Below, piece after piece: positions 1 to 64,000 of a DNA stretch of 64,000 nucleotides. Each line of letters opens with the position of its first letter. Position 1 is the first letter of the stretch. Location: the IMG/VR virus record IMGVR_UViG_3300017919_000016, positions 1-64,000 of that record; one strand, given 5' to 3'. Below the pieces are notes generated by a model, which had not been told where the DNA came from, did no database searches, and was given only the letters and a program-made list of their open reading frames with translations. Source of the stretch: a virus (Duplodnaviria; Caudoviricetes). Both the position numbers and the translations under genes were made by a program.

Positions 1-174
1 TTAGCGAGATAACATTTGTTTTAATTTTTGCTCACCTCGCCTCTCTTTTTCAGGCGATACCAAGTTTCTATTTATTTTAACGCTTTTGTTAGGAGTGGAA
101 ACAATTCTCTCGAATGACTCCACAGCCTTCTTGGTATTCAACGTGAAATCCTTATTAAAAGATGATGTGGCCAT
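1..174 (-). CDS. Small hypothetical protein (57 aa, MATSSFNKDF...), possible antitoxin
   Basis: ATG at 174 after SD AAAGGAGGG; paralogue at 13543-13734; TGnTATAAT upstream near 231-239. Confidence 0.65.
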   Translation of the reverse strand: MATSSFNKDFTLNTKKAVESFERIVSTPNKSVKINRNLVSPEKERRGEQKLKQMLSR

Positions 175-408
175 TCTAATCCCTCCTTTGCTATTATAAT
201 ATGCCTTACTCATTCTTTTGATACATATACATTATATCATATTCTGCCTTGATTGGCTAGATTCCTAATTTTTCTAGTTAGACCATTTTACCATCATTCA
301 GAATATCTTTCAAGAATTTTTTATTTTTGCGACTATTACTCTTGTCATTATTATACCCCGGATTAGTATTTATATCGACAAAATTCGAAAATTCATTACT
401 TCAAAATT

Positions 409-3400
409 TCAGCTTTCCGTATAATACTTCTGATCATGGCTGTAGATATATTCTGGAATCGTCCGTTTCAGTCTATCCATTTCAACCAATGGGTTGATTA
501 TCGTTGTCCTGAAATGTTCAATTGTCATCACATCTCCCATGAATGCTAACATCTCATGGCTAGTTCTAGGCGTTCGGCAATACTTCATAAGCTTTTTTAT
601 TTCAGGTCCGTTTAAAAAATCCAGTCGCTTCAAAAAGTTATCAAGCTTCCTTCGCTTAGTGATGAGCTTTTTATAGTTCTCATAAGTTACCGGCGTGGAC
701 CACTCAAGCCCGACTTTCAGATTGAACACCATTGTCCCATCTTTATAGATTATGCCAGATTCAATCAGCCTCTCAAATAATTCTCTGTTAAAGCTTGCTT
801 CTTCGACCTTAAGACCCGTCTCTAAAACCTTTGATGGAAGCAGTGATTTTCCGTACTTGGTTTGATCGAACCCATAAAAATTCATTCTTCTCTTCTTTCC
901 TAAAAGATCCTGAAGTTTGTAGCTATTAAAGAACCACTCCATTTCTGATTGTAGAAATTGTTGCTGCTCTCTTTTCTCTGTGTAGATTTTCAGTTGTTCC
1001 TGTATTGCCACAATCTTGCTCGTAAGCATATCAATTCGCTGGGAGTCTCTGCCCTTTTTGTTGAGCTCCTCATCCACCGCTTCGTAAAGTTTTTGATACA
1101 GCTCATTCATTCTATCTATCAGCTGTTTCTCCATACTTAGCTCTTCTTCACTTATCTCAAGCTCATCCATTTGCTTTTCATAGTAAGCCTTAAATTCAGG
1201 ATTTGAAATCATTTCAACCAGCAAATGCTGAAAATTGATTTCTAGATATTCTTGATTGAACTGTTTAGCATCACACGCCTGAAGCATATTCTGCAGGCCA
1301 TAACCACAGCGCCAAAATAGTGTAACGCTTGATTTTTTCTTGATCTTTTTCCTCTCAATTTCACCTGTTTTATCATCAAGCTTTTGAACTCTTTTTCTAT
1401 TTATATATCTTCCAAATCCAACTGTTCTACCACATTCTCCACATTTAAATTTATCAGTAAAAGCTTCATTTTTTACTTCCTCTTTTTCAAAACCGAGATG
1501 AACTCTTTTCACACTTTTTTGTCTCTCAGCTCTCATTTGTTGTACTTCATCCCACATGTCCTTCTCAATAATGGCCGGGTGGTGATCCTCAATATGAATC
1601 ATCGGCAGCTCTCCCCGGTTTGGAACAAGCGGTTGTTTACGTTCTGGATTTTTATATTTTTGATTGTGAATGTAATCCCCTTTGTAAACAACATTCACCA
1701 GGATGTTTTGAATGGAGGAATTGCTCCAAAGTCCGGAACCACATGGTGGCACGATACCCTCATCATTAAGTCTTTTAAAGATATCTGCTCGTCTGACCCC
1801 GTTCAAGTAATCCGTATATATGCGCCTAACAATTACTGCTTCCTCTTCTTTGATGACCCACTCTTTATTCTCGTTGTATTCATACCCATAGTTAAGCCTT
1901 CTTGGCCTGACTATCCCTCTACTGGCCAGCGCTCGTTTACCCCAGGAGATGGAACTTCCAATATTTCTACTCTCCTGCTGTGCTAAGGCTCCCATCAAGC
2001 TGACCATAAGCTCGCTGGTATCATCTTCTGATGAAATATTTTCTTTCTCGAAAATAATATAAGTCGGTGACTCTAATTCTCTCAAGATCCGTACATACTT
2101 AATTGCATCAATAGTATTTCGACTAAACCGTGACAATGATTTTGTCAGAATCAAATTGATTTTTCCTGCTTTGCAATCAGCAATCATTCTATTGAATCCT
2201 TCACGGTGTCTTGTTGAAGTTCCTGTAATGCCTTCATCTACATAGATACCAGCAAACTGATACTCGGGATTTTTGAGAATGGCGTAGGTATAAAAAGCTA
2301 TTTGGGTTTTTAGACTTGTCTCTTGTTCTTCCTTATCGGTCGACACTCGAACGTAGGCAGCGACCTTTAACTTCTTTTTAGTCTCAATCTTTGGGTGATA
2401 ATTGTCTTTTACGTTTTTATGGATGCGACTCATTAACTGCATATGCTGCTGATGATCAATCTGTGTTACTTGGGGTAATGCCACGTCGATTTCCTCCCTT
2501 CTCCCGTATTCTTTGATGCCTTCACTTGAATGAAGACTCTCTAATTTCTCTATCCTGTTATTTTTAGTGTCCGGTCCATATGAAGCTCTTGATATCAAAT
2601 TTTCAGTACTTAATGTCTTGGCCTCACGTTCATTGTCAATTGTGGCATCAGGTCCGGATATGAGTTCCGTTTGCTCAATTTTGGCGTCTCTAGATTTTCG
2701 GAAATCCTCAGCTTTACTTTTGCAAAGCTCAACATCACCCACACTCGTTTCGCTGCCATTAATCCAGTGAATCGTATAATTCTCGTCAGAATATATAGTA
2801 ACAGTAAAAATCCAGGCTCTCATGAGCTCCAGTGTTAGCTCAGTTAAGAAAGCCACTGAATCCTTTCCCTCACTAAGCCAGTCAAGAGCCTGGTCCCTGT
2901 ACTGCCTATCATCCTCTATCTGATTGATTTTATCTTCGAATTCTCCATATTGTTTACGCTTATCTTCAACATCCTCTAGCGTAAATCTGGATCCGATTAA
3001 ATGTTCCGCAATCTCAATTTCCGTTAAGTATTTGAGCCGATGAAATTCGAAATGGTCATTCTTATTTACCCACTCTATCATTTGCTCCAGCTCTTTAACT
3101 GTTCTATCAGATCCAAAATCAAACCATTCCTCAAAGCCTCTTTGAAGGATATCGCGCATAACTTCTTCCCTGATATAACTTGTAGGACATAGTTCCTTAT
3201 GCCCCACACGCAACTTGCAACCCCAATATGCTGCTTTCACTCGGTCTGTTGTTCTATAATGGATGTTCCCGCAATAACCGCATATAATCCGCCCTGCAAA
3301 AGGGCTGAATGTCTTTTTTGAGGTCGTGGTTTTATTTGGTCTATTGTCTTCAATAAGCTTTTGCACTTTCTCGAAGGTCTCCAAATCAATGATCGGTGGA

Positions 3401-4347
3401 TTTGCATTTTCAATTAAAATCTTATCTCTCATGCCCTTTGATGACCTAACCCTGTTCGTCATAAGATCCTTGTTTGTCGTTCTACCAATGTAATTCCCTG
3501 TATAAATCGGGAGGGTTAATATCTTCTTTACTGATGAAATGTTCCATGTATCCAGTCCTCTAGGCGTCTTGATACCACTAAGGGTCAATGTTCTCATGAT
3601 GTCTGTCTGAGATTTGCCGTTGAGGTATTCTCTGTAAATCCACCTAACAACGTCTGCTTCTTCATTAATAATCCTAAGTTCCGATCTACCAGAACCTTTT
3701 ACCAGTTCATATCCATAAGTCTTCTGGAAATATGGTCGACCGCTTAATAGTCTTTGCTCTATTCCCCACTTGCCCAGCTCTGACATTGCTTCCACTTCAG
3801 CTTGAGAAAGACTGCCATAGGTTGATAATAAAAAAGCATTATAATCGATGGATGTGTCAATTCGCTCTTTCTCGAAATATACCCCGGTGCCATGTCCTTT
3901 TAGTTCTTCAACGGCTTCAAGTAGTTCTTTTGTATTCCTTGAGAATCGCTGCACACTTTTGGTGATGATTAGGTCCAATTTGCCTTCTTCGGCATGGCGG
4001 AGCATTCTCTTAAAACTACGTCTATCCTTTATTGTCCTGCCAGAAATATTATCATCAAAATAGATCCCGACAAACTTCCAGTTAGGTTTATTCCGAATTA
4101 GTTCTGTATAATGACTCATCTGATTTTGAAGGGATCTTCCTCTTTTGTTCGGTGTTGGACTAACCCTGCAATAGGCGGCTACCCTTACTTCATCATCCGT
4201 TCTTTCAAGCGGACTTTTCCTCTTTTCATCTAAAGGGTTCCATAATGTTTGAACCCACTGCCTCGTATCATTGGGATTCATGTTTTCAATTTCATCCAAC
4301 TGATAAACAGTTGCTTTATTTACAGCATCATCTGATGTTTTGCCCAT
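409..4347 (-). CDS. LSR-C: tandem double large serine recombinase with C-terminal winged helix
   Basis: Two catalytic motifs (AAYCRVS, AAYVRVS), two SRFSRN-type motifs, two CxxCG zinc ribbons; SD GAGAGGAG. Confidence 0.92.
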   Translation of the reverse strand: MGKTSDDAVNKATVYQLDEIENMNPNDTRQWVQTLWNPLDEKRKSPLERTDDEVRVAAYCRVSPTPNKRGRSLQNQMSHYTELIRNKPNWKFVGIYFDDNISGRTIKDRRSFKRMLRHAEEGKLDLIITKSVQRFSRNTKELLEAVEELKGHGTGVYFEKERIDTSIDYNAFLLSTYGSLSQAEVEAMSELGKWGIEQRLLSGRPYFQKTYGYELVKGSGRSELRIINEEADVVRWIYREYLNGKSQTDIMRTLTLSGIKTPRGLDTWNISSVKKILTLPIYTGNYIGRTTNKDLMTNRVRSSKGMRDKILIENANPPIIDLETFEKVQKLIEDNRPNKTTTSKKTFSPFAGRIICGYCGNIHYRTTDRVKAAYWGCKLRVGHKELCPTSYIREEVMRDILQRGFEEWFDFGSDRTVKELEQMIEWVNKNDHFEFHRLKYLTEIEIAEHLIGSRFTLEDVEDKRKQYGEFEDKINQIEDDRQYRDQALDWLSEGKDSVAFLTELTLELMRAWIFTVTIYSDENYTIHWINGSETSVGDVELCKSKAEDFRKSRDAKIEQTELISGPDATIDNEREAKTLSTENLISRASYGPDTKNNRIEKLESLHSSEGIKEYGRREEIDVALPQVTQIDHQQHMQLMSRIHKNVKDNYHPKIETKKKLKVAAYVRVSTDKEEQETSLKTQIAFYTYAILKNPEYQFAGIYVDEGITGTSTRHREGFNRMIADCKAGKINLILTKSLSRFSRNTIDAIKYVRILRELESPTYIIFEKENISSEDDTSELMVSLMGALAQQESRNIGSSISWGKRALASRGIVRPRRLNYGYEYNENKEWVIKEEEAVIVRRIYTDYLNGVRRADIFKRLNDEGIVPPCGSGLWSNSSIQNILVNVVYKGDYIHNQKYKNPERKQPLVPNRGELPMIHIEDHHPAIIEKDMWDEVQQMRAERQKSVKRVHLGFEKEEVKNEAFTDKFKCGECGRTVGFGRYINRKRVQKLDDKTGEIERKKIKKKSSVTLFWRCGYGLQNMLQACDAKQFNQEYLEINFQHLLVEMISNPEFKAYYEKQMDELEISEEELSMEKQLIDRMNELYQKLYEAVDEELNKKGRDSQRIDMLTSKIVAIQEQLKIYTEKREQQQFLQSEMEWFFNSYKLQDLLGKKRRMNFYGFDQTKYGKSLLPSKVLETGLKVEEASFNRELFERLIESGIIYKDGTMVFNLKVGLEWSTPVTYENYKKLITKRRKLDNFLKRLDFLNGPEIKKLMKYCRTPRTSHEMLAFMGDVMTIEHFRTTIINPLVEMDRLKRTIPEYIYSHDQKYYTES

Positions 4348-4447
4348 AGAAAAAACTCCTCTCTTTTCGGTGATATACCTAGCTACTAGGTATGTTCACT
4401 CTGTACAGGATATAATGCAAGTACTTTATCCTGATTGAGGGAGTTTT
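4348..4447 (-). promoter_or_regulatory. LSR-C leader: promoter-like TTGCAT-N17-GAACAT inside an anti-SD fold-back
   Basis: Minus-strand AAAACTCCCTC (4437-4447) is complementary to SD GAGAGGAGTTTT (4352-4363); equivalent leaders precede all four C genes. Confidence 0.6.
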
Positions 4448-4510
4448 CATCTTTCTATGTTAAACACCTACAGTATTAAGGCGTTTGTTTTCATGATTTG
4501 GCTCGGCTGC

Positions 4511-5759
4511 CTACATGTAATCTTTACGGTCAGCGCTGATGCTCCATTTAATGCCGCATTTAAAATGGAAATCGACTTGATGATTGTCATGCACCACACC
4601 TTTTTCAATGGTCTTTACAAAAATATCTTCTCGAAAGCCATCGTCATCACTCAAGTCATCCAAACTTTCAATGAACTCTTCTAAATGTTTCTTTATAAAT
4701 ATGCTTTCGCTTTCCATCTTGCTTAAATTCTCATACTCGAGCTGAATGATCTCTTGCTCATAAATCATATGTCGCATTGTTGCATCATATACTGGATCAC
4801 TTGTAGCTGATTCTCTCGCCGCCAAATCACTGATTCTGTTAGTGATGTGTTCAAGCTTCGTCTCTAGTTCGACCAGTTTTTCCTGCTCCGCTTCTGTAAG
4901 GGCATAATCTTCACTGGCGAGTCGCGCTTCACGGATCACTTCATCACGATCATCATTCATCTCTTGGAGAATCTTCATGAAGGCTTTCTCCAATACTTCT
5001 TCCCATACATAACTCGCATTACATTTGATGCCTTTGTCTATATCCCTATGTGCTGCTACCCTGCAGTGCCATGTTGTAAAGTGATATTTTTCACCATTTT
5101 TTGATGAGGTCATTCGTCTGCGTGTAACGGGTCTGCCACATTTCCCGCAAAACAACATATTGGAAAATACGGATTTCCCGCTATAGGTCATCCTATACTT
5201 CTTTTCGGGATTTCTTAGTAGATCGTTTCTTCTTATGAGCTCCTTTTGAACCTTATCCCAATCCTCTTTTGAGATAATTGCAGGATGGTGATTTTGGATG
5301 TAATATTTCGGTTTGTGGTCTTTATTAGGAACTCTTTTATGGCTTAAAAAGTCTATTGTTACCGTCTTCTGTGCCACGCAATCTCCTGTATATTTTTCTT
5401 GGATCAATATTTTTCGAATTGAATCGCTGGTCCAGGTTTTCTTGCCCCTTGCTGTTAAAACGCCATCTTTCATCAACCCTTTAGCGATCCTTGCTGTTCC
5501 TTTTCCTTCTATAAATTCTCTAAATATCCGCCTCACAACTTCTGCTTCTTTTTCTAGAATAACAATCTTCCCATCTTCATTCGTATCGTATCCTAGAAAG
5601 TATGTGGTTGGTATATGAGGCTTACCTTGAGAGAAACGCTTTGTTACACCCCAGGTAGCATTCATGCTTAATGATTTTGATTCTTCCTGCGCGAGGGAGC
5701 TTAAAATTGTCAAAAATAGCTCTGATTTTGAGTCGAGTGTGTCCAAATTTTCCTTCTCG
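4511..5759 (-). pseudogene. 5'-truncated LSR-B lacking the catalytic N-terminus
   Basis: Matches 17908-19575 from EKENLDTLDSKSEL onward; homology stops at 5758-5759; no YxRVS motif and no SD. Confidence 0.9.
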
Positions 5760-5777
5760 CCTCGAATCTAAAAGGAT
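5758..5777. other. Putative recombination junction J1 (CG-cct-CGAATCTA-aaa-GGAT)
   Basis: Coincides with loss of LSR-B homology; same spacing as J2 and J3. Confidence 0.7.
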
Positions 5778-6370
5778 AAAAAGGAAACCCAATACACAGA
5801 AAAATGTCAAGAAATACTCTGTTTTGACCAGTAATTCTAGGATTTCGAAGTCTATAACGCAAAAAAAAGCCCACCACATTGTGATGAGCTGTAAAATTGA
5901 TCTATATATACGCTCTCAGAGCGATTTATACTTATCTGAATGAATCTTGGTTCATCTGAAATATGCTGAGTCTAATATACGACGTCTCATTATTTAATGC
6001 AAAACCATGAAAAGTCCACGCCTGAACTATACTATACTTCACTGGCAGATCGTTGCTTTTCAATTCTAATAAAACGAGTTTCTTCTATTATATATGTATT
6101 TATTCTGGCGGCTCTCATCCTAAACGATAATCTGTCCCGAGACATGAATTTTTGAAGGGTCACTGAAAAAACGACGCTTCAGTTTGCCCTGTAACGGATT
6201 TTAATTGATTTTATGACCCGTAGTTCCACCCATGGGCTAATTCCCTGAAATTGGCCACAAAAGCGATTTAGTCATTTGGGGCTTTAAAAAGCAAATAACC
6301 CACCAATATTCAGTCTAAGTTCGGTACTTTCCGAGCCTAGATGCCTTCATGGTGGGTTTCTTCATTTATA
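5760..6370. other. Conserved non-coding element-end module, copy 1
   Basis: Shares AGCCCA..TGAGCT hairpin (5868-5890), CGCTCTCAGAGCGATTT, CGTCTCATTA, CGCTTCAGTTTG.CCTGT.ACGG, GACCCGTAGTTC and long hairpin 6297-6358 with 43495-44173; partly shared with 13079-13543. Confidence 0.8.
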
Positions 6371-7330
6371 TTATCTAGTTTTCCATAATGCCATTGGGTG
6401 ATTTCTAATTCGTTCAATAATCTTCGCATCTTCAAAGAGTAGTTCTGGAACGTATTCTCCGCCTTCAAACTTATTCAGGAATTCCTTTTCTTCCTTCGTC
6501 AAAACCATCAGATCAGAAATGTACTCTTTAACAAGTTTCTTAGCCGACTCCAATTCAAAATCATCTTTTGTTTTAATGACAGGATTGAGATCTGTCTTAA
6601 TCTTCCTCTTAGTAATTGAGTCAATGCCTTTGGTATCAAAGGTCTTGTTTATACTGTTTTTATCTCTCGCTGATATGGCTGCATAGAATACAACGCACTT
6701 TCTCAGCATTTCCTCTTCCGATTCATCAAAGAGACCATAGTGAATCATATTTCTTGAATCATACAAATCCCTGGCTGCAGCTCTGCTTAGTAGCGCATTC
6801 ATCTTACTTCCGTATATCTCAAGTGGAGCTAGAGACTTCACCTTATACTCACTGGAAAAATGTTCAGTTATAATCGGTCTTTCTTCCGCTTCGAGAACGT
6901 GGGACCGTAATGAGTAATTGACTTCAATCTTGATATTATCCTTATTCCCGCTGGCTCCTATGTAGTCATAGACCCATGAGTCCAAGCTATGAGGATTCTT
7001 CGTCTTGGGATTTTTTGAATAACCCTGGGACACCATATAGCGATCAATAGTACTGTTAATGACCTCTCTACTTTCAAGCATTTCTTCTTTACTGTTGGTG
7101 ATTAAATAATCCAAATCTATATCTACAGAAAGACGTGGCAAGTTGAAAATCGTAAGATTAATTGCTGTGCCACCTTTTAATGCAAGACTATCTTTAAGAA
7201 TTGGATTTGTATTTAAATACTCCAGAATATCTGCTAGCCTCGTTACCTTTTCTAATGTATCCCTCACAAATCCTAATTCTTCAGCTTTTTTCCCTAAATA
7301 TATAATGTCGTAATTAGACAAGTATATCAC
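6371..7330 (-). CDS. abiEii: AbiEii/AbiGii-family nucleotidyltransferase toxin (type IV TA / abortive infection)
   Basis: LKGGTAINL..PRLSVDIDL nucleotidyltransferase motif and K..ALLSR..ARDLYD motif; overlaps the upstream antitoxin. Confidence 0.88.
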   Translation of the reverse strand: MIYLSNYDIIYLGKKAEELGFVRDTLEKVTRLADILEYLNTNPILKDSLALKGGTAINLTIFNLPRLSVDIDLDYLITNSKEEMLESREVINSTIDRYMVSQGYSKNPKTKNPHSLDSWVYDYIGASGNKDNIKIEVNYSLRSHVLEAEERPIITEHFSSEYKVKSLAPLEIYGSKMNALLSRAAARDLYDSRNMIHYGLFDESEEEMLRKCVVFYAAISARDKNSINKTFDTKGIDSITKRKIKTDLNPVIKTKDDFELESAKKLVKEYISDLMVLTKEEKEFLNKFEGGEYVPELLFEDAKIIERIRNHPMALWKTR

Positions 7331-8081
7331 CTCCTTGATCCGTTATTTCAAATAGCCCTTCCGGTACCATCAGTTCCCATTCACTGTTATAGAAGCTATC
7401 GTCCTTTGCTTCACTCACAAGGTACCGTCTGCTTTTTCCTATTTTACCTTTGCAATATTCTATGAACTCCTTCGATACCTGCATCTCTTTTCGATAATGA
7501 TCAAGGAGATATCCTACCCGTTGATATAGGCCCTGGGTATTATATATATCAAGGTATCGCTTCAGTTTCTTTTCATCCAAATACTGGATTCCTTCCAAGC
7601 AGTTCAACAATTCTTCAAACCCACCTATTTTATTGAAATCCCTTATGCTGTCAACAACTGTCCGTTCCATATCAGTTATTCTAACCCCGGTGGTGTTCTT
7701 TGCTTCAAAAACACCCTCACTCATCCTTGATGCAACATATTTATAAGTTACATGATCATATTCAAAATGATTGAACTTTGTTTCAGATGAAACATACACC
7801 TCATAGAACACTTGATTCGCCAATCCATAATATTCAAAAGCACTGTGATGAGAGATATATGCAGTGTCAGTTATAGCGCAAGCGATTTGATAACGAGTTG
7901 CCACAAGCTGCCCTGTTGTCGGGTTGACTACAGAGTATATGTTCTTTCGTATCTTTTTGACCAGATCCTTTTTCATTAAACGGTCCAGCTGGGAATAAGC
8001 TGTCTTTTCATTACCTACAAGATTCTTTACATCATCGATTGTAAAAACCGGATACTTCGCCAGTTCAGTTAACACATCCAC
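7314..8081 (-). CDS. abiEi: AbiEi-family antitoxin / transcriptional regulator
   Basis: N-terminal wHTH, YISHHSAFEYYGL and TDMERTVVD motifs; paired with AbiEii. Confidence 0.85.
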   Translation of the reverse strand: MDVLTELAKYPVFTIDDVKNLVGNEKTAYSQLDRLMKKDLVKKIRKNIYSVVNPTTGQLVATRYQIACAITDTAYISHHSAFEYYGLANQVFYEVYVSSETKFNHFEYDHVTYKYVASRMSEGVFEAKNTTGVRITDMERTVVDSIRDFNKIGGFEELLNCLEGIQYLDEKKLKRYLDIYNTQGLYQRVGYLLDHYRKEMQVSKEFIEYCKGKIGKSRRYLVSEAKDDSFYNSEWELMVPEGLFEITDQGGDILV

Positions 8082-8096
8082 TTATCTCACCTCTCT

Positions 8097-8399
8097 TTTT
8101 AATTTTGGCATGATTTTCTTCGCATTTAAAGAATAACGTTCCATTTTTAAAATTATTATAGCCGCTTTACTTTAGTGCTATTCATCTTTTTTTAATTTTA
8201 GCACGTTATTCTTCATAAGTAAAGAAAATCGTTCCATTTTTAAAAATAAACTGGATGGCCTTTGACTTTTTTAAGCATAAAAACAAACCCACCAAGTGGC
8301 TTGATCATTATAATCAGGCTACTCAGTGGGTTTCTTTGTGCGTTTTTAATTTTGTCATGATTTTCTTCATATTTTAAGAATAACGTTCCACTTTTAAAA
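8097..8399. repeat. Three ~56-bp imperfect palindromic repeats (about 8097-8152, 8189-8245, 8343-8399); probable AbiEi operators
   Basis: Consensus TTTTAATTTTG.CATGATTTTCTT-N8-AAGAATAACGTTCCATTTTTAAAA, upstream of abiEi. Confidence 0.75.
8285..8333 (-). terminator. Hairpin/terminator downstream of LSR-C
   Basis: AAACCCAC...GTGGGTTT stem followed by a T-tract on the minus strand; near-identical to 46490-46538. Confidence 0.7.
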
Positions 8400-8407
8400 A
8401 TGCATAC

Positions 8408-46538: not shown

Positions 46539-46543
46539 CATTC

Positions 46544-55116: not shown

Positions 55117-56265
55117 TTAATAGGGTGCGAAGTAAATATACCCACTTGCCTTTATATAAAAGCCATCACCCGGAATGTAGATGGCCCCATCGAATGTATC
55201 GTATTGACTTACCGCTAGATCAGGTTGATCCACCCCTTTCCAGCTGATACCATCATCGGACAAATACATCATCTTCTCAGTGAACAAAGCGTATTTCTTC
55301 CACTCATTCATCCAGATGATATTCCTTGGATTAGAGATGTTATTACTAGCGAGGTCACCGACCCATGAAAGATTCGTCTCCGTCATCTGTGTGGCATCGT
55401 CACTCATTACAGAGAGTTTCACATTGTAAATATAATCTCCACCCGTTTTTCTATAGTTATACTTTGTCACAAATAGCTTTTCATTTACTGACTGGATGAA
55501 CATGTATCTTGTATCATTCTCGTCTTCTGGTATTGTCGTGATCCACTCATCTGGAGCCATTGAGTTAGCAATAGCTATTGATTTATCGCCGCCTACCACA
55601 CCTACAAAGCTTCCTTTATGCGCTGTTAGATATTTGAAGATAGGCACCTTTTTTTCTTCAGTTGGTTCGATAAGAGTCCACTTAGTTTTCTCTTCTAATG
55701 AATCAAAGCTATGATAGATTGGAGTTTTCTCATACCACCAACTAACGACGCCACTTGATTCTTCCGCATCATATGCCGCTGTCGTCATGGCATTATAGGC
55801 TCCTTCACAGAAGCCCGCGTTATACCAAGTGATGCCATCATGAGAAGCGATGATATTAGCGAGTCCCGTAATCTTGGCCAGGAAAACTCCATCATCCGCG
55901 TAAAGTATCTCTGGTTCTCCATTTTCCCACCAAGAACAATCCACCATTGTCCACTCGCCACTATCTTTATCAAAATATGAAACGTAAGGAGCTTTTGCTC
56001 TATACACAGCGATCTGAGCACTTCCGTTATCATAAACATTGATCTGCTTTTCATCACCCAGCATCTCGTAACCAAAGTCTTCAAGGGTTAACTTTTCCCA
56101 GCTAAGTGAGTTCAGTCCAAGGTTTTCTACTGCATCATCGTCAAGATACTCTATCGCCTTAGCTTCATCAACTGGTGTGGTGTCAAAAAACACCATCGCG
56201 ACGATTGCAATAAAAGCGACAATCATCAAACTGATGATGAGCTTACCTTTACCACTTTTTATCAC
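55117..56265 (-). CDS. Membrane-anchored or secreted paralogue of the tail beta-propeller protein
   Basis: Basic N-region plus hydrophobic helix (KGKLIISLMIVAFIAIVAMVFF), then colinear homology to 56438-57511; SD AAAGGAG. Confidence 0.85.
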   Translation of the reverse strand: MIKSGKGKLIISLMIVAFIAIVAMVFFDTTPVDEAKAIEYLDDDAVENLGLNSLSWEKLTLEDFGYEMLGDEKQINVYDNGSAQIAVYRAKAPYVSYFDKDSGEWTMVDCSWWENGEPEILYADDGVFLAKITGLANIIASHDGITWYNAGFCEGAYNAMTTAAYDAEESSGVVSWWYEKTPIYHSFDSLEEKTKWTLIEPTEEKKVPIFKYLTAHKGSFVGVVGGDKSIAIANSMAPDEWITTIPEDENDTRYMFIQSVNEKLFVTKYNYRKTGGDYIYNVKLSVMSDDATQMTETNLSWVGDLASNNISNPRNIIWMNEWKKYALFTEKMMYLSDDGISWKGVDQPDLAVSQYDTFDGAIYIPGDGFYIKASGYIYFAPY

Positions 56266-56345
56266 TACTTCTCACCGCTCCTTTCAAATGGATAACACAT
56301 AGACACCATCTATGAACTCAAATATCCTACGATATTCTGACATCT

Positions 56346-56375
56346 ATTATAAAATATATAACTATATTTTTCCAA
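56346..56375 (-). promoter_or_regulatory. Sigma-A-type promoter for 55117-56265
   Basis: TTGGAA-N18-TATAAT in an AT-rich spacer absent from E1. Confidence 0.6.
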
Positions 56376-56437
56376 TCAATTCGAGCGTAAAACCATCTTT
56401 TTAATCGCCTCACTCAGCTTAAGAAATGTAGTTTTCA

Positions 56438-57511
56438 TTAGTATGGGGCATAGTAAACATAACCGCTAGCTTTAGCATAAAAACCATCACCAGGAATGTA
56501 CATGGCACCATCGAAGGTGTCATACTGACTTGTGGTGAAACCCGGCTGTTCAACTCCCTCCCAGTAAAGACCATCATTGGAGACACAGAGCATACTCTCT
56601 TTTAGAAGTGCGAACTTTCCCCAGTCCTCCATCCAGATGATGTTCCTTGGATTTGGGATATTGTTGTTGGCCAGATCCCCTACCCAGGAAAGATTGGTCT
56701 CGGTGATCTGTGTGGCATCATCACTCATCACACAGAGCTTTACATAGTAGGTATAATCACCGCCCACATTGGTGTAGTTGAACTTCATCACAAAGAGGAC
56801 ATCATTCACAGACCTGATAAACATATACCGGGTGTCGTTCACATCCTCTGGTATAGTCGTAGTCCAAAGACCGGGAGTGGCTGAACTGGCTATTGCTATG
56901 GATTTGTCTCCACCAACTACGCCGACAAAGTTTCCCTTATGGGTGGTCAGGTATTTAAAAATCGGTACCGAAGTTCCGTCAGATCCAACCAAGGTCCATG
57001 CAGTTCTTTCCTCTAAAGAGTCAAAGCTATAGAAGACTGGTGATTTGTAGTACCACCAACTGACGATACCGGAGCCTCTGGCCATATCATAAGCCCCACA
57101 TGTCATTGCATTATAAGCTCCGGGACAATACCCCGCATTATGCCAAGTGATGCCATCAAAGGATGCGATGACATTGGCAAGGCCCACAATCTTGGCAATA
57201 AACACACCATCTGCTGCATAGAGAATCTCCGGCTGGCCATAGCTCCACCAAGGAACACTGACCACTGTCCACTGCTTTGTGGTCTTGTTCCAGTAGGACA
57301 TGTAGGGAGTCTTTGCAAAGTACACAGCAATTTGAGCGTTGCCATTATCGTAAACGTTAATCTGCTTCTCGCTGCCATACTGGGTGTAGCCAAAGTTATT
57401 ATAGTATTTCTTTGACCAACTCAGTGTTGGAATGGTGAAAAGAACCTCTCCTCGTCCACCGAAAGCTGTCCAGATGGCTAGGGTGTTATTAAAAATATGA
57501 TCATAGCTCAT
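56438..57511 (-). CDS. Tail-associated beta-propeller-like protein, putative receptor-binding protein
   Basis: Near-identical protein to 25109-26182. Confidence 0.6.
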   Translation of the reverse strand: MSYDHIFNNTLAIWTAFGGRGEVLFTIPTLSWSKKYYNNFGYTQYGSEKQINVYDNGNAQIAVYFAKTPYMSYWNKTTKQWTVVSVPWWSYGQPEILYAADGVFIAKIVGLANVIASFDGITWHNAGYCPGAYNAMTCGAYDMARGSGIVSWWYYKSPVFYSFDSLEERTAWTLVGSDGTSVPIFKYLTTHKGNFVGVVGGDKSIAIASSATPGLWTTTIPEDVNDTRYMFIRSVNDVLFVMKFNYTNVGGDYTYYVKLCVMSDDATQITETNLSWVGDLANNNIPNPRNIIWMEDWGKFALLKESMLCVSNDGLYWEGVEQPGFTTSQYDTFDGAMYIPGDGFYAKASGYVYYAPY

Positions 57512-57526
57512 GGATTCAGCCCTCCT

Positions 57527-58654
57527 TTATACTTTTGTGACGCTGGTGATTCTTCCGCCGCTATCCACGGTGTAGTTATATGTTGCTGTTGTTCCGTCTG
57601 CGTATTCAATATAAAAACTCATCATATCCACCGTTAAAGTGGATACTTCTTTCAAAAGAAGCTCCGAGAAAATATTATCCAGGGTGATGCTTGTAATACG
57701 GCCCCCGCTATCTGTGGTGTACTGGTACTGGGCATGATACTGGTGAGTATCACCCTTTTCCACAGTGTAGGTCACATCAATGGTTGTTTCCGTCACTACA
57801 AGATTGGAAACTATGGTATAGGAGACCCCTAGGTCATTCACCTGTGTTTGAATGTCATCCACCGAGCTTCCCACATTATTTAAAGAACTCTCTATCCGGT
57901 AGAAGGTATCTGAAATGCTGGGTCTATACCTCCCAACTTCCACCCGGATGTTGTACCTATAAAAGGGATTGTATTCTAGGGAGATGATTCTCGTCTTCAC
58001 GTTGATTCCTAAGGGGTTAAAAACAATCTGTACATTATCTCCTACAGCAAGGTTCAAGAGCTTAAAGAATGAGATGTCATAGGATGAAGCATTCTCCCTG
58101 GAATCATGGGATACCGCTACGTTGGTTACATTCTTTGAATCCATCACCGGGATATAGTCAGTGCTTCCCCTATGACTTCGAATGTTGATGTTGTAACCAT
58201 CGTACTCAATTTCCCCGCCAAGGATAGCAATATATTGCATCAGAGCAGCCCTTCTTGATACTTCCTGATTTATCTTCATAGTGACACTCTCTGTGAAATC
58301 TACAATCCCAGCATTAAATGTTGTGCCTGAAAGAACCTGCTCAAGTCCTGCAGCCGGATCTCCGGTGAAGTCAAACTCTGTGATGTTATACATCTCATGA
58401 TTCAGGAGATAGGATACGTGCTCACAAATCACTGAACAGATAGGAAGGCTGCCCTGAAGACTCTTTGAAATCTGAACAATCTCAAAATACTGATCATCCA
58501 GTTTTGCGATCTGTTTTACCTTAAGAGCCAGTGCTGATTTTGCGAGCACCGTAAAAGAAAGTGTATACTCCCCTTCTAGGGTTTCTCTGACAGTAGCACT
58601 CATGACTTTTTTAATGTTTTGAAGCAGTGTACTACCTGCATAGATTTCAATCAA
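57527..58654 (-). CDS. Phage tail hub/spike protein
   Basis: Paralogue of 26187-27326. Confidence 0.8.
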   Translation of the reverse strand: MIEIYAGSTLLQNIKKVMSATVRETLEGEYTLSFTVLAKSALALKVKQIAKLDDQYFEIVQISKSLQGSLPICSVICEHVSYLLNHEMYNITEFDFTGDPAAGLEQVLSGTTFNAGIVDFTESVTMKINQEVSRRAALMQYIAILGGEIEYDGYNINIRSHRGSTDYIPVMDSKNVTNVAVSHDSRENASSYDISFFKLLNLAVGDNVQIVFNPLGINVKTRIISLEYNPFYRYNIRVEVGRYRPSISDTFYRIESSLNNVGSSVDDIQTQVNDLGVSYTIVSNLVVTETTIDVTYTVEKGDTHQYHAQYQYTTDSGGRITSITLDNIFSELLLKEVSTLTVDMMSFYIEYADGTTATYNYTVDSGGRITSVTKV

Positions 58655-58675
58655 GGCTAATCCCTCCTCTCTGTT

Positions 58676-60955
58676 TTATGATCCTGCCACTCCAAGATTT
58701 CTAACGGTGACGGTATTTTGATTCCACTGTAGTTGTGCTATGACTCTTGTTAGAATATTTCCATCAATTGTAAGTGGAATGGTCACATCAAAGACTGCAC
58801 CTTCAGAACCACCGAGACTTCCTGAAACTTGAGAGTTCAGATCGAGATCAAAGTCTGTAGGTATAGCTCCTTGAATGTCTTTTTCAACCCCACTCATGGC
58901 TTCAGTGAAGCCCTCTCCAATACCTTCACTCATGTTGGCACCAATCCCAGCGAATACTTTTGATGGTGAGCGGATTCCAAGAACACCTTTAACACCTTTA
59001 ACGATACCACTGACCATGCTATCCACTTTTCCTTTCAGCCAACCGATCATGGAGGAGATACCGTCCCATAGACCTCTAGCGATGTTTTTTCCCACATCAT
59101 TCATAGAAGGAATGGCTCTTCCCAGTCCTGTCACAATTGCCGAGATGATTTGTGGAAGCTGACCGACAAGCTGCGGAATGGCTCTGATGAGTCCTGCCGC
59201 CAGCTGGATGGTCAGCTGAATGCCCATCTCAATAATCTTAGGTAAGTTATTTGTGATGAAGGTAATAATGCTATTGATTATTTGAGGGAGGGCATCTATT
59301 AGCTTCGGCAGTGAGTTGATCAGACCCTCGGCAAGGCCACTGATGATCTGAAAGGCTGCATCAAGGACCAGGTCTAAGTTGTCGATGAACGTCTGGGCAA
59401 TGAGAATCACTGCTTCAACAATGGAAGGAACCAGCTCAGGTAGCGCTTCACCAAGTCCCGTAGCAAGGGTAACAATCATCACAAGGGCTGCTTCTACAAG
59501 TGCTGGCAGATTGGCGATGATTCCATCTACTAAAGTCAGCACCAGTTGGAGTGCGCCTTCAGTAATCTGAGGTAGAGCTTCGATGAGTCCACCTACGATG
59601 GTCATAATAATATTTGTCGCCGCTTCAATAAGCGTTGGCAAGTTATCGATGATGCCACTTACTAGAGCAAGAACAAGGTCCGGTGCCACTTCGGCAATAG
59701 CCGCTATGAGTCCAGTCACCACCTCTAAAATCTGCGGAAGAATCACTGCAATCTGATCCACCGTTTGCCTGGCCCCTTCTTTTAACGCTTCTGCGGCTCC
59801 TTCTTGGCCAGTAATTAGTCCGGTAAGCCCATCAAGCACCATGGTGAAGCCAGGAAGGAGCTGCGAGGTGATGTTGTTTTTCACCCCTGCAAAGGAACGA
59901 GTGAGGTTATCCATGGCATCGGTGTAACCCACCGCCGCATCAATGGATTCATCACTCATCACTAGGCCAAGTTCACTGGCTTTATTCTTCAGAGCATCTG
60001 TGCTTTCTGCTGTTTGATTTAAAAGGGCTCCAAGCTCTACAGAAGACGTGCCAAGAAGGTCATTGGCAATAGCAGCTTTTTCGCCTTCATCTGCAATCCC
60101 CTGTAGTCCTCTAACGGTCATCTCAAAGACTTCTTCTCGAGATTTCCCTTGAAGGTCCTCCATAGAAATGCCGAGTCTTTTAAACTTTTCAGTAGCAGAA
60201 GCACTCCCATTAATGGCATCATCCACGGTGCTATTCAGTTTCTTCATCCCGGCTTCAAGAGATGAGATGCTGGCACCATTTTGAGAAAGTACATACTCCC
60301 ATTCCTGATAGCCTTGTCTCGAAAGGCCCAGTCTTTGACTGGCTTTATCCACTACATCTCCGGCGGCAGCTGCATCATTTGCCATATCATACAGCTTCTT
60401 TCCCGCACCCACTGCTGCAGTTCCAATGGCTGCCATGGCCACACCAATACCGGCGGCTACACCTTTCATGACAGATCCTAGTTTTTCAAGCTTCCCACCG
60501 GAATCATCTGCTACTTTAGCTGACTCTTTAATCTCATCGCCAAACTTATCAGCTTCTTTACCGGCATCATCAAATCCATTGCTGGCTGCATCGAGAGCTT
60601 TATTGTTTTCATCAAGCTCCCGCTCCATCTTGTTAAGATCTGCATTTGCATTATTCAGCTGAATCTGCCAGGCCTTGGTTCGCTTGTCATTCTCGCCAAA
60701 GGAGTCGGCGGCATTTTTAAGGGCAGCTTCCAGGGTGCCGATTTTGTTTTTCTGGGCATCGATCTCTTTATTCAGGACTTCATTTCTTGCTGTCACTGCC
60801 TGTAGAGATTTATCCTGTTTATCAAACTGAGATGTGACGAGCTTCATCTCAGAACCAAGCACTTTGAAATCTCTGTTGATTTCACGAAGGCTATTCTTGA
60901 ACTCCTTTTCCCCTTCAATACCTATTTTTAGGCCAAAATTGCTATCACCTGCCAT
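58676..60955 (-). CDS. Tail tape measure protein
   Basis: Paralogue of 27348-29627 with the same length. Confidence 0.92.
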   Translation of the reverse strand: MAGDSNFGLKIGIEGEKEFKNSLREINRDFKVLGSEMKLVTSQFDKQDKSLQAVTARNEVLNKEIDAQKNKIGTLEAALKNAADSFGENDKRTKAWQIQLNNANADLNKMERELDENNKALDAASNGFDDAGKEADKFGDEIKESAKVADDSGGKLEKLGSVMKGVAAGIGVAMAAIGTAAVGAGKKLYDMANDAAAAGDVVDKASQRLGLSRQGYQEWEYVLSQNGASISSLEAGMKKLNSTVDDAINGSASATEKFKRLGISMEDLQGKSREEVFEMTVRGLQGIADEGEKAAIANDLLGTSSVELGALLNQTAESTDALKNKASELGLVMSDESIDAAVGYTDAMDNLTRSFAGVKNNITSQLLPGFTMVLDGLTGLITGQEGAAEALKEGARQTVDQIAVILPQILEVVTGLIAAIAEVAPDLVLALVSGIIDNLPTLIEAATNIIMTIVGGLIEALPQITEGALQLVLTLVDGIIANLPALVEAALVMIVTLATGLGEALPELVPSIVEAVILIAQTFIDNLDLVLDAAFQIISGLAEGLINSLPKLIDALPQIINSIITFITNNLPKIIEMGIQLTIQLAAGLIRAIPQLVGQLPQIISAIVTGLGRAIPSMNDVGKNIARGLWDGISSMIGWLKGKVDSMVSGIVKGVKGVLGIRSPSKVFAGIGANMSEGIGEGFTEAMSGVEKDIQGAIPTDFDLDLNSQVSGSLGGSEGAVFDVTIPLTIDGNILTRVIAQLQWNQNTVTVRNLGVAGS

Positions 60956-61021
60956 AGTGTCTCACCTCCTCCTCTTTAGGCATGAAAAAAGACACCTCGT
61001 CTCAAGTGTCTAAAAATCAAT

Positions 61022-61231
61022 CTAGATCCAAGCGGGAATGACGTCATCGATCGATAGATTTAGCTTCGGTTTTGCGATGCCAATAAACTGCTTGTGGCAT
61101 TCCCAAAGATCCATCAGATAACCTATAGGCATCAGCCACACCTCATCTTCTTTACGATTAAGATGGGCCGTGCCGTAGTAGATCAGTCGGGTAAATAACT
61201 CCTCATCACTTACCCGACTACCTCGTTTTTT
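61022..61231 (-). CDS. Tail chaperone -1 frameshift extension
   Basis: A AAA AAC at 61231-61225; -1 frame open to TAG at 61022. Confidence 0.8.
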   Translation of the reverse strand, partial: KKRGSRVSDEELFTRLIYYGTAHLNRKEDEVWLMPIGYLMDLWECHKQFIGIAKPKLNLSIDDVIPAWI

Positions 61232-61620
61232 GAAGGTTCGCTCTCCACATTTCTCTTGGTCCCCTTCATCATACTGGCCATGATGGCGTTCTTGTAGGCC
61301 GCTAGATCAAAAGGTGTGGTGAGAAGCTCCACTTCTTCTTCAGTGAGGAGTTCTTTCTTCTGATCCTTATTCCTGATGTTATGAATCAAGATGGACTGAT
61401 TGGCCAGAAGGGTGATGAGCCAAACCACCTCCTCGAGCGCCATTTCAAAGTTCTCAGTTTTCATGAGCTTCTCGCCAAGGTTTTCAAGACCGCCATAACG
61501 TCCTGCAATTTCTTTTGTTGCCTTCGTTGTGAGTACCAGCTTAAACTCTGTGCCACCGATTTCAATAGTGGCGCTTCGATCTTCAGCTGCTTCTGTGAGT
61601 TTTACATTTTCATCTGCCAT
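61210..61620 (-). CDS. Tail assembly chaperone
   Basis: Paralogue of 33193-33603. Confidence 0.85.
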   Translation of the reverse strand: MADENVKLTEAAEDRSATIEIGGTEFKLVLTTKATKEIAGRYGGLENLGEKLMKTENFEMALEEVVWLITLLANQSILIHNIRNKDQKKELLTEEEVELLTTPFDLAAYKNAIMASMMKGTKRNVESEPSKNEVVG

Positions 61621-61634
61621 CTATCTTCCCTCCA

Positions 61635-62516
61635 TTAAGATACGATTACTGTTGCTACTTCAGTTGTCACAGGATCTGCTCCACTTAAGTTCAGCACACA
61701 GTAATAGTAATAGGTATCCGCCAGAAGACCCGTTGGGATATCAAAGCTGGCAGAGGTCTCTCCATTAATTGGTGTACCTCCTGTAGAACTGTCAATGGTG
61801 TTTTCATACCACTGATACGTTACAGGGTTAGACGTATTGGAACTTGCCACCACAGAAAGACTTCCAGTTATGCTACCGGCTGTCACTTCGGTGAGGGCTG
61901 CAGGCTGAGTCGTGATGGTAATCGCCGGTGTTACCGGAGTAAAGTTTGGTTCATACACGGAAGTGAACCAACCTGAAATAGTCGATGGTGCAACACCGCT
62001 ATCTCCTTCAGTGACTTCGGCTTTCCATGGGTGCTTGTTTTCTCCATCCAGTTTGTTTCGTCTAAAGACCGTTCCCTCTATGGTGGGACTACTAAAGGTA
62101 ATGGAATCACCTTTGGTCGCAAGGCTGGTGGCAGGGACACTAAAGATAACTCGATAGAGCCAAAAATATCTATAGCGTCCGTTGGCCTTCTTAGCACGAA
62201 ACCCGATGGCCACTGGGCTTCCTCCATCTTCACTTCTTGAAACAACGACATTGTTGCTGTCGATTTTGCATCCTGTTAAATCCTGGGCCACCACTGAACC
62301 AATATCATCAATCCCAAGAGTCAGTGCGCCGCTTTTGAATTCCTTCACAACTTCTGATGCACCATCATCCGCATAAAGAATTGCTTCAATCAGCTCCACA
62401 CTCAGTTCTGCCGTCATGGCTTTAGCCAGGACCTTTGGTGTGCCATAGGTTTCGATGCCATTTTGATCTTCTGTAATCTTGGCGTAGTATAGACTGTCGA
62501 GTCCAATTGTTGCCAT
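61635..62516 (-). CDS. Major tail protein with Ig-like domain
   Basis: Paralogue of 33618-34499. Confidence 0.9.
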   Translation of the reverse strand: MATIGLDSLYYAKITEDQNGIETYGTPKVLAKAMTAELSVELIEAILYADDGASEVVKEFKSGALTLGIDDIGSVVAQDLTGCKIDSNNVVVSRSEDGGSPVAIGFRAKKANGRYRYFWLYRVIFSVPATSLATKGDSITFSSPTIEGTVFRRNKLDGENKHPWKAEVTEGDSGVAPSTISGWFTSVYEPNFTPVTPAITITTQPAALTEVTAGSITGSLSVVASSNTSNPVTYQWYENTIDSSTGGTPINGETSASFDIPTGLLADTYYYYCVLNLSGADPVTTEVATVIVS

Positions 62517-62554
62517 ATCCTATTCCTCCTTCAAAATAGCTGAATCCGCTTCAG

Positions 62555-62902
62555 CTAAAAATTCACTTCATAAACTTTTGCCACATCGATGGCGAAGTGG
62601 TGAAAACCAGTATCTTCTTCGTATCCGAGATACCTTCTGTCCGTTATGATAAAGCCTGCTCCCAGTAGTGCTTTTACCACTTCATTTTTTCTCACCTGGT
62701 AGTTGCCCTTAGAGAACAAGGAGAGACGAACTTCCTGCAGTTCTGCTCCTGGCAGATCATCAGCAAAATGATCAAAGATATCACTCATAGGGGTAATGAC
62801 CAGATATTCATCCGGAGCTTTTTTACTGAACACACCTGTTTCAATGGGAACCCCCAAAGGCACAAGGACCTCGCCTATATCCTTCAAAATACTGTTATAC
62901 AT
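62555..62902 (-). CDS. Tail terminator/completion protein
   Basis: Paralogue of 34538-34885. Confidence 0.7.
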   Translation of the reverse strand: MYNSILKDIGEVLVPLGVPIETGVFSKKAPDEYLVITPMSDIFDHFADDLPGAELQEVRLSLFSKGNYQVRKNEVVKALLGAGFIITDRRYLGYEEDTGFHHFAIDVAKVYEVNF

Positions 62903-62922
62903 ATCGCTCGCCCTCCTTCTCT

Positions 62923-63354
62923 TTAGATTTTACTGATCTCTTCATCCAGCTTTCTTTTCATCGCATCTATACAGGCGTTTCGGCTGGCTGTTTTTGCCGG
63001 TTTCAAGAATGGCTTAGCCGGCTGACCAGACTTACCGTACTCTAAGATATTGGCGAGTTTAGCATTTGATTCTCCGTCTTTTCGCGGTTCATCAAAGCCC
63101 ACCTTCACATTGTAATTGCCATCTCGATCCACGCCAGCAGGCGTTACACCGAGTGCATCAATCAGCTCTCCAGTAGACCTTGATGGAAGTTTTGTGTCAC
63201 TTCCAATCGTTGCATGTAGATTGGTTTTCACTTTGGCTTTCACCACTTCGCCACCTTCTTTTAGGACTTTGGGGATGATTTCATCGGTCTTCTCAGCTAG
63301 GGTAGATACCTTTAACAAGAAGCTTTCAGGCATTTTGTAGGTTCCACGTGCCAT
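62923..63354 (-). CDS. HK97 gp10-family protein
   Basis: Paralogue of 34906-35337. Confidence 0.88.
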   Translation of the reverse strand: MARGTYKMPESFLLKVSTLAEKTDEIIPKVLKEGGEVVKAKVKTNLHATIGSDTKLPSRSTGELIDALGVTPAGVDRDGNYNVKVGFDEPRKDGESNAKLANILEYGKSGQPAKPFLKPAKTASRNACIDAMKRKLDEEISKI

Positions 63355-63365
63355 GAAATCACCTC

Positions 63366-63695
63366 CTAGTCCTTCGTGGCTTCAATCTTTTCTGCTGCTA
63401 CTTCAAAATAAAATCCCATAATAACCTCAACGCTTAAGATTCGGTACTCCCCGGTATCGCAGCGGATCAACATACCAGGTTCAATCACCACATCAGGAAT
63501 CCTTCTAAACTGAAAGGTGGCACTCGCTTTGGAATAGGCGGCCATATTGGCCCACTTTCTTGAACCGTGCCTTTCATCCCTATATGCACGAACACTGGCG
63601 ATGATCTCTTCTCCCTTGGAGGAGAATCCTTCAGCGTCCTTGATGGGAATCGTATCGATGATGTCGATTCGGGTGTTCATCTTCCCAAAGCTCAT
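63366..63695 (-). CDS. Head-tail adaptor
   Basis: Paralogue of 35349-35678. Confidence 0.8.
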   Translation of the reverse strand: MSFGKMNTRIDIIDTIPIKDAEGFSSKGEEIIASVRAYRDERHGSRKWANMAAYSKASATFQFRRIPDVVIEPGMLIRCDTGEYRILSVEVIMGFYFEVAAEKIEATKD

Positions 63696-63813
63696 ACCCT
63701 TCACCTACCTTTACTACCTTTTCCTCATAACCATGACTGCGATCCTTCCGTCTGCCCTTTCGGTAGCATCTTTTCTGACGTTTCCTTCTTTTCTTCACCC
63801 ATAACCGTTTCAT
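63631..63813 (-). CDS. Arg/Lys-rich 60-aa microprotein
   Basis: Paralogue of 35614-35796. Confidence 0.6.
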   Translation of the reverse strand: MKRLWVKKRRKRQKRCYRKGRRKDRSHGYEEKVVKVGEGYELWEDEHPNRHHRYDSHQGR

Positions 63814-64000
63814 CAGACCTGCCACTCCTTTCCCATGCGTAGAAGTAGATGTACTGTCTTCCACACCTGCTCTGAAGCACTGACATTGTCATTAAAGAAA
63901 CCACCGGTGGAGCCATCACGACTCTCATAAAAATGAGAAGCCAGCATAATGACTCCCTGCTCAGTGGTCGGTGACATGGTGTTTTCTGTGTAGAAGTTTG
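63813..64000 (-). CDS. Head-tail connector (3' part, cut by window edge)
   Basis: Paralogue of 35796-36104. Confidence 0.85.
   Translation of the reverse strand, partial: NFYTENTMSPTTEQGVIMLASHFYESRDGSTGGFFNDNVSASEQVWKTVHLLLRMGKEWQV

Follow-up and report, generated by a model that had tools for sequence, protein, structure and literature searches.

The first 64,000 nucleotides (nt) of the 91,964-nt virus record IMGVR_UViG_3300017919_000016 (Caudoviricetes), a stretch called the window in what follows, hold a stack of four related phage elements, each cut by the end of the next. They are named E2, E1, E0 and E-1 in the order in which they are met on the minus strand, which carries all long open reading frames (ORFs) of the window. 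E2 is a complete ~47-kb siphophage that extends past position 64000; E1, E0 and E-1 are the right-hand remains of relatives. All carry, whole or in part, genes for large serine recombinases (LSRs), here called A, B and C, and two of the three joins between elements lie inside a B gene. The whole stack sits at one chromosomal site, between orf98 (a gene for a 98-aa protein) and sugar genes. The feature is real and recurrent; its mechanism we infer in part. Our preferred reading, with a probability of roughly 0.45, is serial arrival at this site, in which the end of each newcomer was joined by a recombinase to a secondary site in the resident and the resident's left part was lost.

Self-comparison and Pfam domain searches give four collinear units and, with the precise joins, bear out the claim of a reading made earlier from the sequence alone (the sequence-only reading) that four related elements are each cut by the end of the next. 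The features that define the stack, all on the minus strand, are as follows.

E2: 43493..64000, continuing in the record to ~90.5-91.0 kb; the window part (right two-thirds) carries tail, holin, amidase, LSR A, B and C, cargo and an end module.
E2 LSR A: 51776..53404; 542 aa, with tblastn homology to E1 A and B, on which its domain assignment rests.
E2 LSR B: 50094..51776; 560 aa, recognized by tblastn and alignment, 59% identical to E1 B.
E2 LSR C: 46544..49918; fused double recombinase of 1124 aa with two Resolvase and two Recombinase stretches.
E2 end module: 43493..44180; 690 nt, non-coding, terminus 43493.
Target half of the E2/E1 join: 43475..43492; -10 half of a conserved phage promoter-like element.
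E1: 13077..43492; packaging, head, tail and lysis genes, LSR A, B and C, a small ORF and an end module.
E1 LSR A: 21272-19578 (Pfam).
E1 LSR B: 19575-17908; full length (Pfam).
E1 LSR C: 13823..17752; double recombinase of 1309 aa (Pfam).
E1 end module: 13077..13545; terminus 13077.
E0 remnant: 5759..13076; B from residue ~256, C, AbiEi/AbiEii and an end module.
E0 truncated B ORF: 13148-12186; without Resolvase domain (Pfam), cut at residue ~256 (tblastn).
E0 LSR C: 12115-8408; double recombinase (Pfam).
E0 end module: 6371-5759; terminus 5759.
E-1 remnant: 1..5758; B from residue 141, C and a small ORF (213-1).
E-1 truncated B ORF: 5746-4511; without Resolvase domain (Pfam), cut at residue 141 (tblastn).
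E-1 LSR C: 4347-409; double recombinase (Pfam).

In the self-comparison, window positions 33005-41919 match record positions 61022-69946 at 89%, 25104-29689 match 56431-61017 at 86%, 21278-22447 match 53469-54637 at 82% and 387-5758 match 13800-19155 at 87%. E1 starts just upstream of its own amidoligase-like and terminase genes and is without early genes. Resolvase, Recombinase and zinc-ribbon domains are all found by Pfam in A and B of E1, and each C has two sets of them. One ORF of 1124-1312 aa thus encodes two complete serine-recombinase units in LSR C, and the fusion is kept in dozens of related loci; A, B and the double C together give four catalytic units per element. Three of the four C copies add a Fic-like C-terminal winged-helix domain, which in the 13823-17752 copy falls below the Pfam cut-off.

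Join positions were fixed through partners that are intact elsewhere: locus L004, which holds an E0-type element with full A and B; loci L310/L312 from a sister sample, with the E-1 element; and E2's own late-promoter region. The E2/E1 join lies at 43493/43492, just upstream of E1's amidoligase-like and terminase genes, the E1/E0 join at 13077/13076 and the E0/E-1 join at 5759/5758. These confirm the positions first proposed (E2's end upstream of E1's packaging genes, E1's end in the B gene of E0, E0's end in the B gene of E-1), and the tblastn cut points given above agree that two of the three joins are inside B. Homology of L004 to the window begins at 13076, and homology of E1 to E2's late-promoter region begins 4-5 nt from 43492. 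At the E0/E-1 crossover the cut and uncut alleles have only G(A) in common, and at each join the partners share no repeat in which the join lies.

On the newcomer's side of each join stands an end module. The three align with one another, are non-coding and 460-690 nt long, and close with a terminal CG, which a TTATCC-type box (TAATCC in E2) precedes by ~14-16 nt. The same terminal motif meets unrelated flanks in more than 20 loci, and the E2-type terminus is joined to other flanks in L014, L018, L043, L045, L092 and L095. The proposal that the joins are element ends spliced into relatives is supported by these data. A dyad partner for the end arm was sought and not found.

The joins are not assembly artefacts, since they are reproduced by assemblies from the European Nucleotide Archive (ENA) and the Joint Genome Institute (JGI), by L004, by the Anaerotalea isolate and by a Zodletone metagenome-assembled genome (MAG). 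The ENA metagenome contig k141_6180 (175.7 kb, seen in four samples) equals the record at 99.98-100% over the matching stretches; a JGI contig holds the E2/E1 region including the join at 99.8% identity; and locus L320 differs from the record by three mismatches and no gaps across 17.6 kb. The stack is thus reproduced in three assemblies, as well as in isolate genomes. Anaerotalea alkaliphila F-3ap is the closest isolate (86-97%), E1 alone matching it over 16.3 kb at 86%. A megablast search against GenBank phages gave one weak tail match and none for the recombinase region.

Viral and genome collections queried with B yielded many similarly organized loci. Among isolate genomes, those of Anaerotalea, Heliorestis and Desulfitispora contain stacks that are built like the one in the window and share some of its joins. 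The E0/E-1 join type recurs in L004. The junction of an E1 end with B residue 256 recurs twice in Anaerotalea alkaliphila and in the Zodletone MAG. The Anaerotalea contig reads A, B, C, end; B-3' (from 256), C, end; C-3' (from ~158), end; B-3' (from 256), C, cargo, end; and then A-3' (from 146), B, C. In Heliorestis acidaminivorans, three to four [B-3', C] remnants (from residues 173, 121 and 252, plus a fragment) come after a full E2-like prophage. Stop codons stand in its distal remnants, so the oldest remnants would be those furthest from the full phage. In Desulfitispora alkaliphila one end is joined to the second unit of C at residue 117 and another lies 130 nt upstream of an A gene.

Target choice depends on end type. 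E0-type ends adjoin the codons for F-E-K-E-N-(L/I)-D-T (FEKEN below) of serine-recombinase genes, in at least eight different target genes: in B in the window, L004, L031, L040 and L102; in A in Anaerotalea; in the first C unit in Anaerotalea; and, for Desulfitispora and L123, in the second C unit. B residue ~157 is met by a variant end that has a T after it (L019, L025, L028). E1-type ends adjoin B codon ~256 in two different B lineages. E2-type ends adjoin the -10 half of the promoter-like element in the window, L045 and L043, and this element is found intact in more than 115 viral contigs. It is conserved base for base (window 42185-42201 and 43475-43491; L191-L270), with a -35-like CTTGCTAT box and a 20-nt invariant block, which precede a ribosome-binding site and ATG. 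Several copies occur per phage, before middle and late operons, and the element is possibly a site read by the phage's own sigma factor.

The composite formed by an E1 end, B from codon 256 and the E0-type C is found in the window, twice in Anaerotalea and in the Zodletone MAG, at 78-92% identity. In both the window and Anaerotalea it is joined to an E-1-type element, at B residue 141 in the former and within the first C unit in the latter, where that element is 97% identical to E-1 of the window. This comparison of sequences suggests that the segment from E1 to the E0 end can act as one unit using its outer end, and E1 and E0 may have been inherited together as a composite instead of arriving one by one. 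Another possibility is that codon 256 is hit again and again by E1-type ends; an independent E1-type hit into a B2-like gene is present at the end of L004.

Uncut forms of two of the three truncated elements were found. L310/L312 carry an E-1 element with full A and B that is 100% identical to window 1-5758, the identity ending at the join, and the E0 element of L004 is 95-99% identical to that of the window. The window and L004 agree at 98-99% in their E0 parts but show 10-13% difference in their E-1 parts, which means that one site can receive insertions independently. An uncut E1 with early genes was not found, and an exact look-up of E1's 276-aa protein returned none on record.

The left parts of the residents were sought in several places. 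The 28 kb of the record beyond 64000 hold the rest of E2, then orf98 and a gene with an LTD domain, with no 5' fragment of a recombinase gene and no second homologue of E2's early genes. The 429-kb Heliorestis contig likewise has no 5' halves: all its matches to the recombinase family lie inside the array, and host genes follow the left end of the prophage. By exact-sequence look-up, the A and tape-measure proteins of the uncut E-1 occur only in samples without the stack.

The chromosomal site is recognized from both sides. Where no remnant intervenes, ends of all three types adjoin the same chromosomal arm (L033, L092, L093, L310), which contains an inverted copy of the TTATCC box and precedes genes for DegT, a sugar transferase and a glycosyltransferase; in L310 an E1-type end is joined to it. 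The Heliorestis array ends at a Wzz gene. Left of E2 lies orf98, followed by the LTD-domain gene. The orf98 sequence is highly conserved across Bacillota, and homologues occur in phage-free polysaccharide loci, beside MurJ and UDP-glucose dehydrogenase in Alkaliphilus pronyensis. The order orf98, helix-turn-helix (HTH) gene, DegT in a JGI contig (L318) represents the empty locus. A second E2-like phage (L183) has orf98 at its left end too. Growth of the array beside one conserved host gene fits these flanks, orf98 standing left of E2 and L183 and DegT and Bac_transf genes right of single elements. A phage 95-98% identical (G001) has another left flank, with a sharp breakpoint.

Several observations belong to these flanks. 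An insertion sequence (IS) of IS3 type (HTH_21/rve; L309:15402-16700, beyond window position 1) cut the E-1 end 22 nt before its terminus and replaced the polysaccharide-locus right flank that is still present in the sister allele L310. A 7-nt TTTAGAG shared by the 3' end of orf98 and the E2/E1 join was rejected as a common core: it is intrinsic orf98 coding sequence, present in L183 and Alkaliphilus. A candidate left junction at record ~90,975 that resembles the chromosomal arm was not confirmed, and no element yielded its attP sequence. A perfect Firmicute LexA (Cheo) box, GAAC-N4-GTTC, lies at record 90,499-90,510 (L002:18499-18510) and separates the -35 from the -10 in the promoter ahead of E2's first gene, which encodes 276 aa with no function assigned; the position of the box suggests direct SOS control of that gene.

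In the preferred reading, related temperate siphophages would pile up at an attachment site in a cell-surface polysaccharide locus, between orf98 and the DegT and sugar-transferase genes. The last ~25 nt of the right-end module would be one arm of the phage attachment site. When a newcomer met an occupied site, its end arm would recombine with a secondary site that it prefers within the resident: the FEKEN codons of any serine-recombinase gene for E0-type arms, B codon ~256 for E1-type arms, and the conserved phage promoter for E2-type arms. The resident's stretch from its own left end to the secondary site would be deleted, so that the newcomer came to adjoin the host left flank, and the resident would persist as recombinase 3' part, C, cargo and end. 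Repetition would build a stack with the newest element on the left. The recombinases presumably perform the joining.

The sequence-only reading had offered three routes: nested insertion of newcomers, tandem integration followed by deletion, and integron-like accretion of cassettes. Of these the second, once made site-specific, fits best the lack of 5' halves and the host-type flank, and the most likely route would accordingly be tandem entry, after which the attP-like joint and the secondary site would recombine within one molecule.

A number of points weigh against this. That the E-1 left part is missing was concluded from look-ups of exact sequences. E2's left junction is placed within record 90.5-91.05 kb, not to the nucleotide; all three assemblies end 115-225 nt left of the LTD gene and the record covers nothing further left. 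A homologue of the LTD gene lies between the SNF2 and methylase genes in the middle region of phage L172, and a phage origin of E2's left flank retains some likelihood. A tandem intermediate, which would have a newcomer end joined to the left end of a resident, was not found. Recombination of attP with attL is not carried out by canonical phage serine integrases, so tandem entry would need a promiscuity like that of the Ccr recombinases. Pairing of non-canonical sites is reported for CcrAB in the discussion of PMC5595907.

The most serious competitor, though we consider it doubtful, has a circular newcomer integrate at the secondary site and lie nested in the resident, whose left part is later removed, through homologous recombination of collinear relatives or through non-canonical attL x attL recombination. 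Integration of attP into pseudo-sites is ordinary behaviour for serine integrases, and genuine nesting at the FEKEN codons exists. In Robertmurraya andreesenii (contig C2, 11,065-25,345; L189:11065-20000 plus L190:1-5345) a 14.3-kb satellite-like insert interrupts the LSR B gene of a related prophage at these codons. Its genes include those for a tyrosine integrase, HTH repressor and D5/Pox_D5 primase and a capsid-like one; neither half of B has been lost, a TTCGAG core stands at each side, and a further remnant (B from ~276, then C) follows the split gene. A like arrangement is found in Logan contigs, so recombinase genes are landing sites for unrelated elements too. Short 5'-only B proteins that end right after FFE occur in other assemblies (P0007, P0119), the related protein P0119 commonly.

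Against nesting in the window stand the missing 5' halves, in the record, in the samples that hold the stack and in Heliorestis, and the host-type gene left of E2. Nested insertion had predicted E1's early genes and then the 5' halves of B beyond 64000; host-type orf98 is seen instead, and only right halves of the residents are present, rather than both halves flanking an insert. Pure nesting therefore fails at this locus. Nesting of E2 in E1, with LTD and orf98 as middle-region genes of E1, was dropped because of the orf98 homologues in phage-free polysaccharide loci. Homologous collapse of a nested intermediate would leave in E1 a segment identical to the lost left part of E-1, the one case in which this can be tested. 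E1 and that part are 77-87% identical throughout, so that E1 holds no stretch derived from it and the signature is absent. Both halves of a target are kept where insert and resident have neither homology nor recombination sites in common.

A further reading treats the FEKEN codons, which belong to the conserved catalytic domain, and B codon ~256 as dedicated landing pads in a conflict among mobile elements, at which rivals are immobilized and their chromosomal site is taken over, with the B-3' proteins, which lack the catalytic domain, and the intact C genes of the remnants kept because they are still active. Four-unit LSR phages and at least one tyrosine-integrase satellite would then home into a rival's recombinase gene. 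The B-3' proteins and C might bind DNA as partners or act as inhibitors, so that the old ends became usable for the newest phage and the accreted cargo moved with it. We judge this reading as a whole unlikely.

The idea that units of B-3', C, cargo and end are mobile cassettes, captured singly as in integrons, is quite improbable. In its favour, the units repeat, each closing with the same recombination arm; the composite of an E1 end with B from codon 256 and C recurs in several genomes; and the truncated B ORFs are open, with a ratio of nonsynonymous to synonymous substitution (dN/dS) of 0.02-0.04, equal to that of intact B. But near-identical full-length precursors exist for E0 (L004) and E-1 (L310/L312), truncation points range from ~117 to 276, other remnants start within A, C or a tail gene or at promoters, and the distal Heliorestis units, with their stop codons, are decaying. 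The dN/dS value was rejected as a sign of selection after truncation: since independent insertions are documented, a low value can predate truncation. No tyrosine recombinase was among the window ORFs scanned, and the units are truncated phages with precursors of their own. The integron-like route is thus disfavoured.

Ordinary decay, in which tandem prophages were trimmed by random deletion or IS elements or the contigs are chimeric, is hardly credible: an IS3-type element did trim the distal end of E-1, an IS256-type transposase lies within E1 and the sequences are metagenome contigs, but the joins match element termini and the same codons of paralogous genes to the nucleotide in many independent lineages, no repeats are common to the partners, and the recurrent joins, the uncut E-1 allele and the independent assemblies and isolate genomes largely refute it.

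Accretion by relatives is known from other systems. In ICESt1/ICESt3 (integrative and conjugative elements, ICEs) and the cis-mobilizable elements (CIMEs) of Streptococcus thermophilus, a newcomer integrates beside a relative and deletions leave a composite whose old parts lack mobility genes; in contrast to the window, tyrosine integrases act there at the 3' end of a tRNA gene or fda, and deletions are not tied to recombinase-gene motifs. TnpX and TndX of Tn4451 and Tn5397, large serine recombinases too, connect the end of an element with several joint-like targets through a GA crossover. The E0/E-1 join resembles these in the G(A) shared with the uncut allele. They differ in being single recombinases of small transposons, with no phage involved, and the evidence for a GA core does not extend to the other joins here, several of which have T after the terminal G.

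Prophage-in-prophage clusters of Shiga toxin-producing and enteropathogenic Escherichia coli (PMC8112680) are like the stack in that newcomers use attachment sequences inside residents, clusters gather cargo and residents are defective. They differ in using lambdoid tyrosine integrases and attB copies of chromosomal origin in effector loci, and in keeping both parts of the resident (PMC8112680). In the window the enzymes are serine recombinases, the targets are motifs in rivals' recombinase genes or a phage promoter, and the left part is gone.

Tandem cassettes of the staphylococcal cassette chromosome (SCC/SCCmec) with CcrAB (PMC11470126; PMC5595907) share with the stack paired large serine recombinases and one-sided growth beside a conserved host gene. 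Defence genes are carried along in the SCC array as well, and Ccr enzymes take non-canonical site pairs (PMC11470126; PMC5595907). SCC units, however, are whole and repeat one attachment core between them. In the window the element arm is repeated with differing partners (promoter, B residue 256, B residue 141), every older unit is truncated, at differing internal sites, the units are phages, and four recombinase units are present, two of them fused. The gin element of Bacillus cereus (PMC5595907) is like the present elements in coming from Bacillota and in having several (three) serine recombinase genes; its known reaction does not require all of them. It differs in being no phage, lying in gerE, not being stacked, and having GirA, GirB and GirC at 22-26% mutual identity with none fused. 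None of the systems compared combines phage elements, a four-unit module, targets in rivals' recombinase genes and serial truncation, and a limited literature search found no description of recombinase-gene targeting by such phages.

If the preferred reading is true, it adds a serine-recombinase route to prophage-in-prophage clustering and tandem accretion. The secondary attachment sites would be conserved coding motifs of rivals' recombinase genes, so that arrival decapitates the resident, and the growing tail of recombinase remnants and defence genes would be one way in which defence-rich islands form by the surface-polysaccharide loci of Bacillota. Natural pairs of cut and uncut alleles (window versus L310/L312) make the reaction directly testable, and four-unit recombinase modules with several defined natural targets may interest engineers of serine integrases.

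The remaining genes of the elements include cargo and defence functions.

E2 early genes: record 72.8-89.2 kb, minus strand; sigma factor, SAM synthetase, DUF2800 nuclease, PolA, VapE primase, SNF2 helicase and methylase.
E2 cargo: 44180..46396, minus strand; a PhdYefM/HARE-HTH-like gene, a 109-aa ORF and a gene with Schlafen AlbA_2, HATPase_c_4 and Fic-like_C domains.
E1 AbiLi/AbiLii-like pair (AAA_21 ATPase plus RloB): window 22497-24441; absent from E2 and L003.
E1 tail-module insert: window 29779-32802, 3.3 kb; AbiEi, a 61-aa ORF, an IS256-family (Transposase_mut) transposase and AbiEii; absent from E2.
E0 AbiEi: 8081-7314, minus strand (Pfam, PADLOC).
E0 AbiEii: 7330-6371, minus strand (Pfam, PADLOC).

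The gene order of E2 is an SOS-box promoter, early genes, methylase, amidoligases, packaging, head, tail, holin, amidase, A, B, C, cargo and end module. The sequence-only reading held that the distal cargo slot is retained and builds an array like a defence island. Retention stands, given the AbiEi/AbiEii pair in E0 (PADLOC, 1.8e-106 and 3.8e-124) and the Schlafen-type gene in E2 (window 44180-45589). The likeness to a defence island holds in part, since the distal slots of E1 and E-1 contain small ORFs only. The defence genes of E1 lie elsewhere: its AbiLi and AbiLii (PADLOC, 4.5e-78 and 2.4e-11) stand between holin and amidase, and in its tail module a second AbiE pair is split by the IS256-type element, which the corresponding insert in Anaerotalea is without. 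The Schlafen-type gene appears as ORFs of 300 aa and 158 aa in the record, versus a single gene of 466-474 aa in the ENA and JGI assemblies. Between C and AbiEi of E0 are three direct repeats of ~64 nt, 81-84% identical (window 8092-8402). The last tail gene of E2 is tandemly duplicated (55117-56265 and 56438-57511, ~70% identity).

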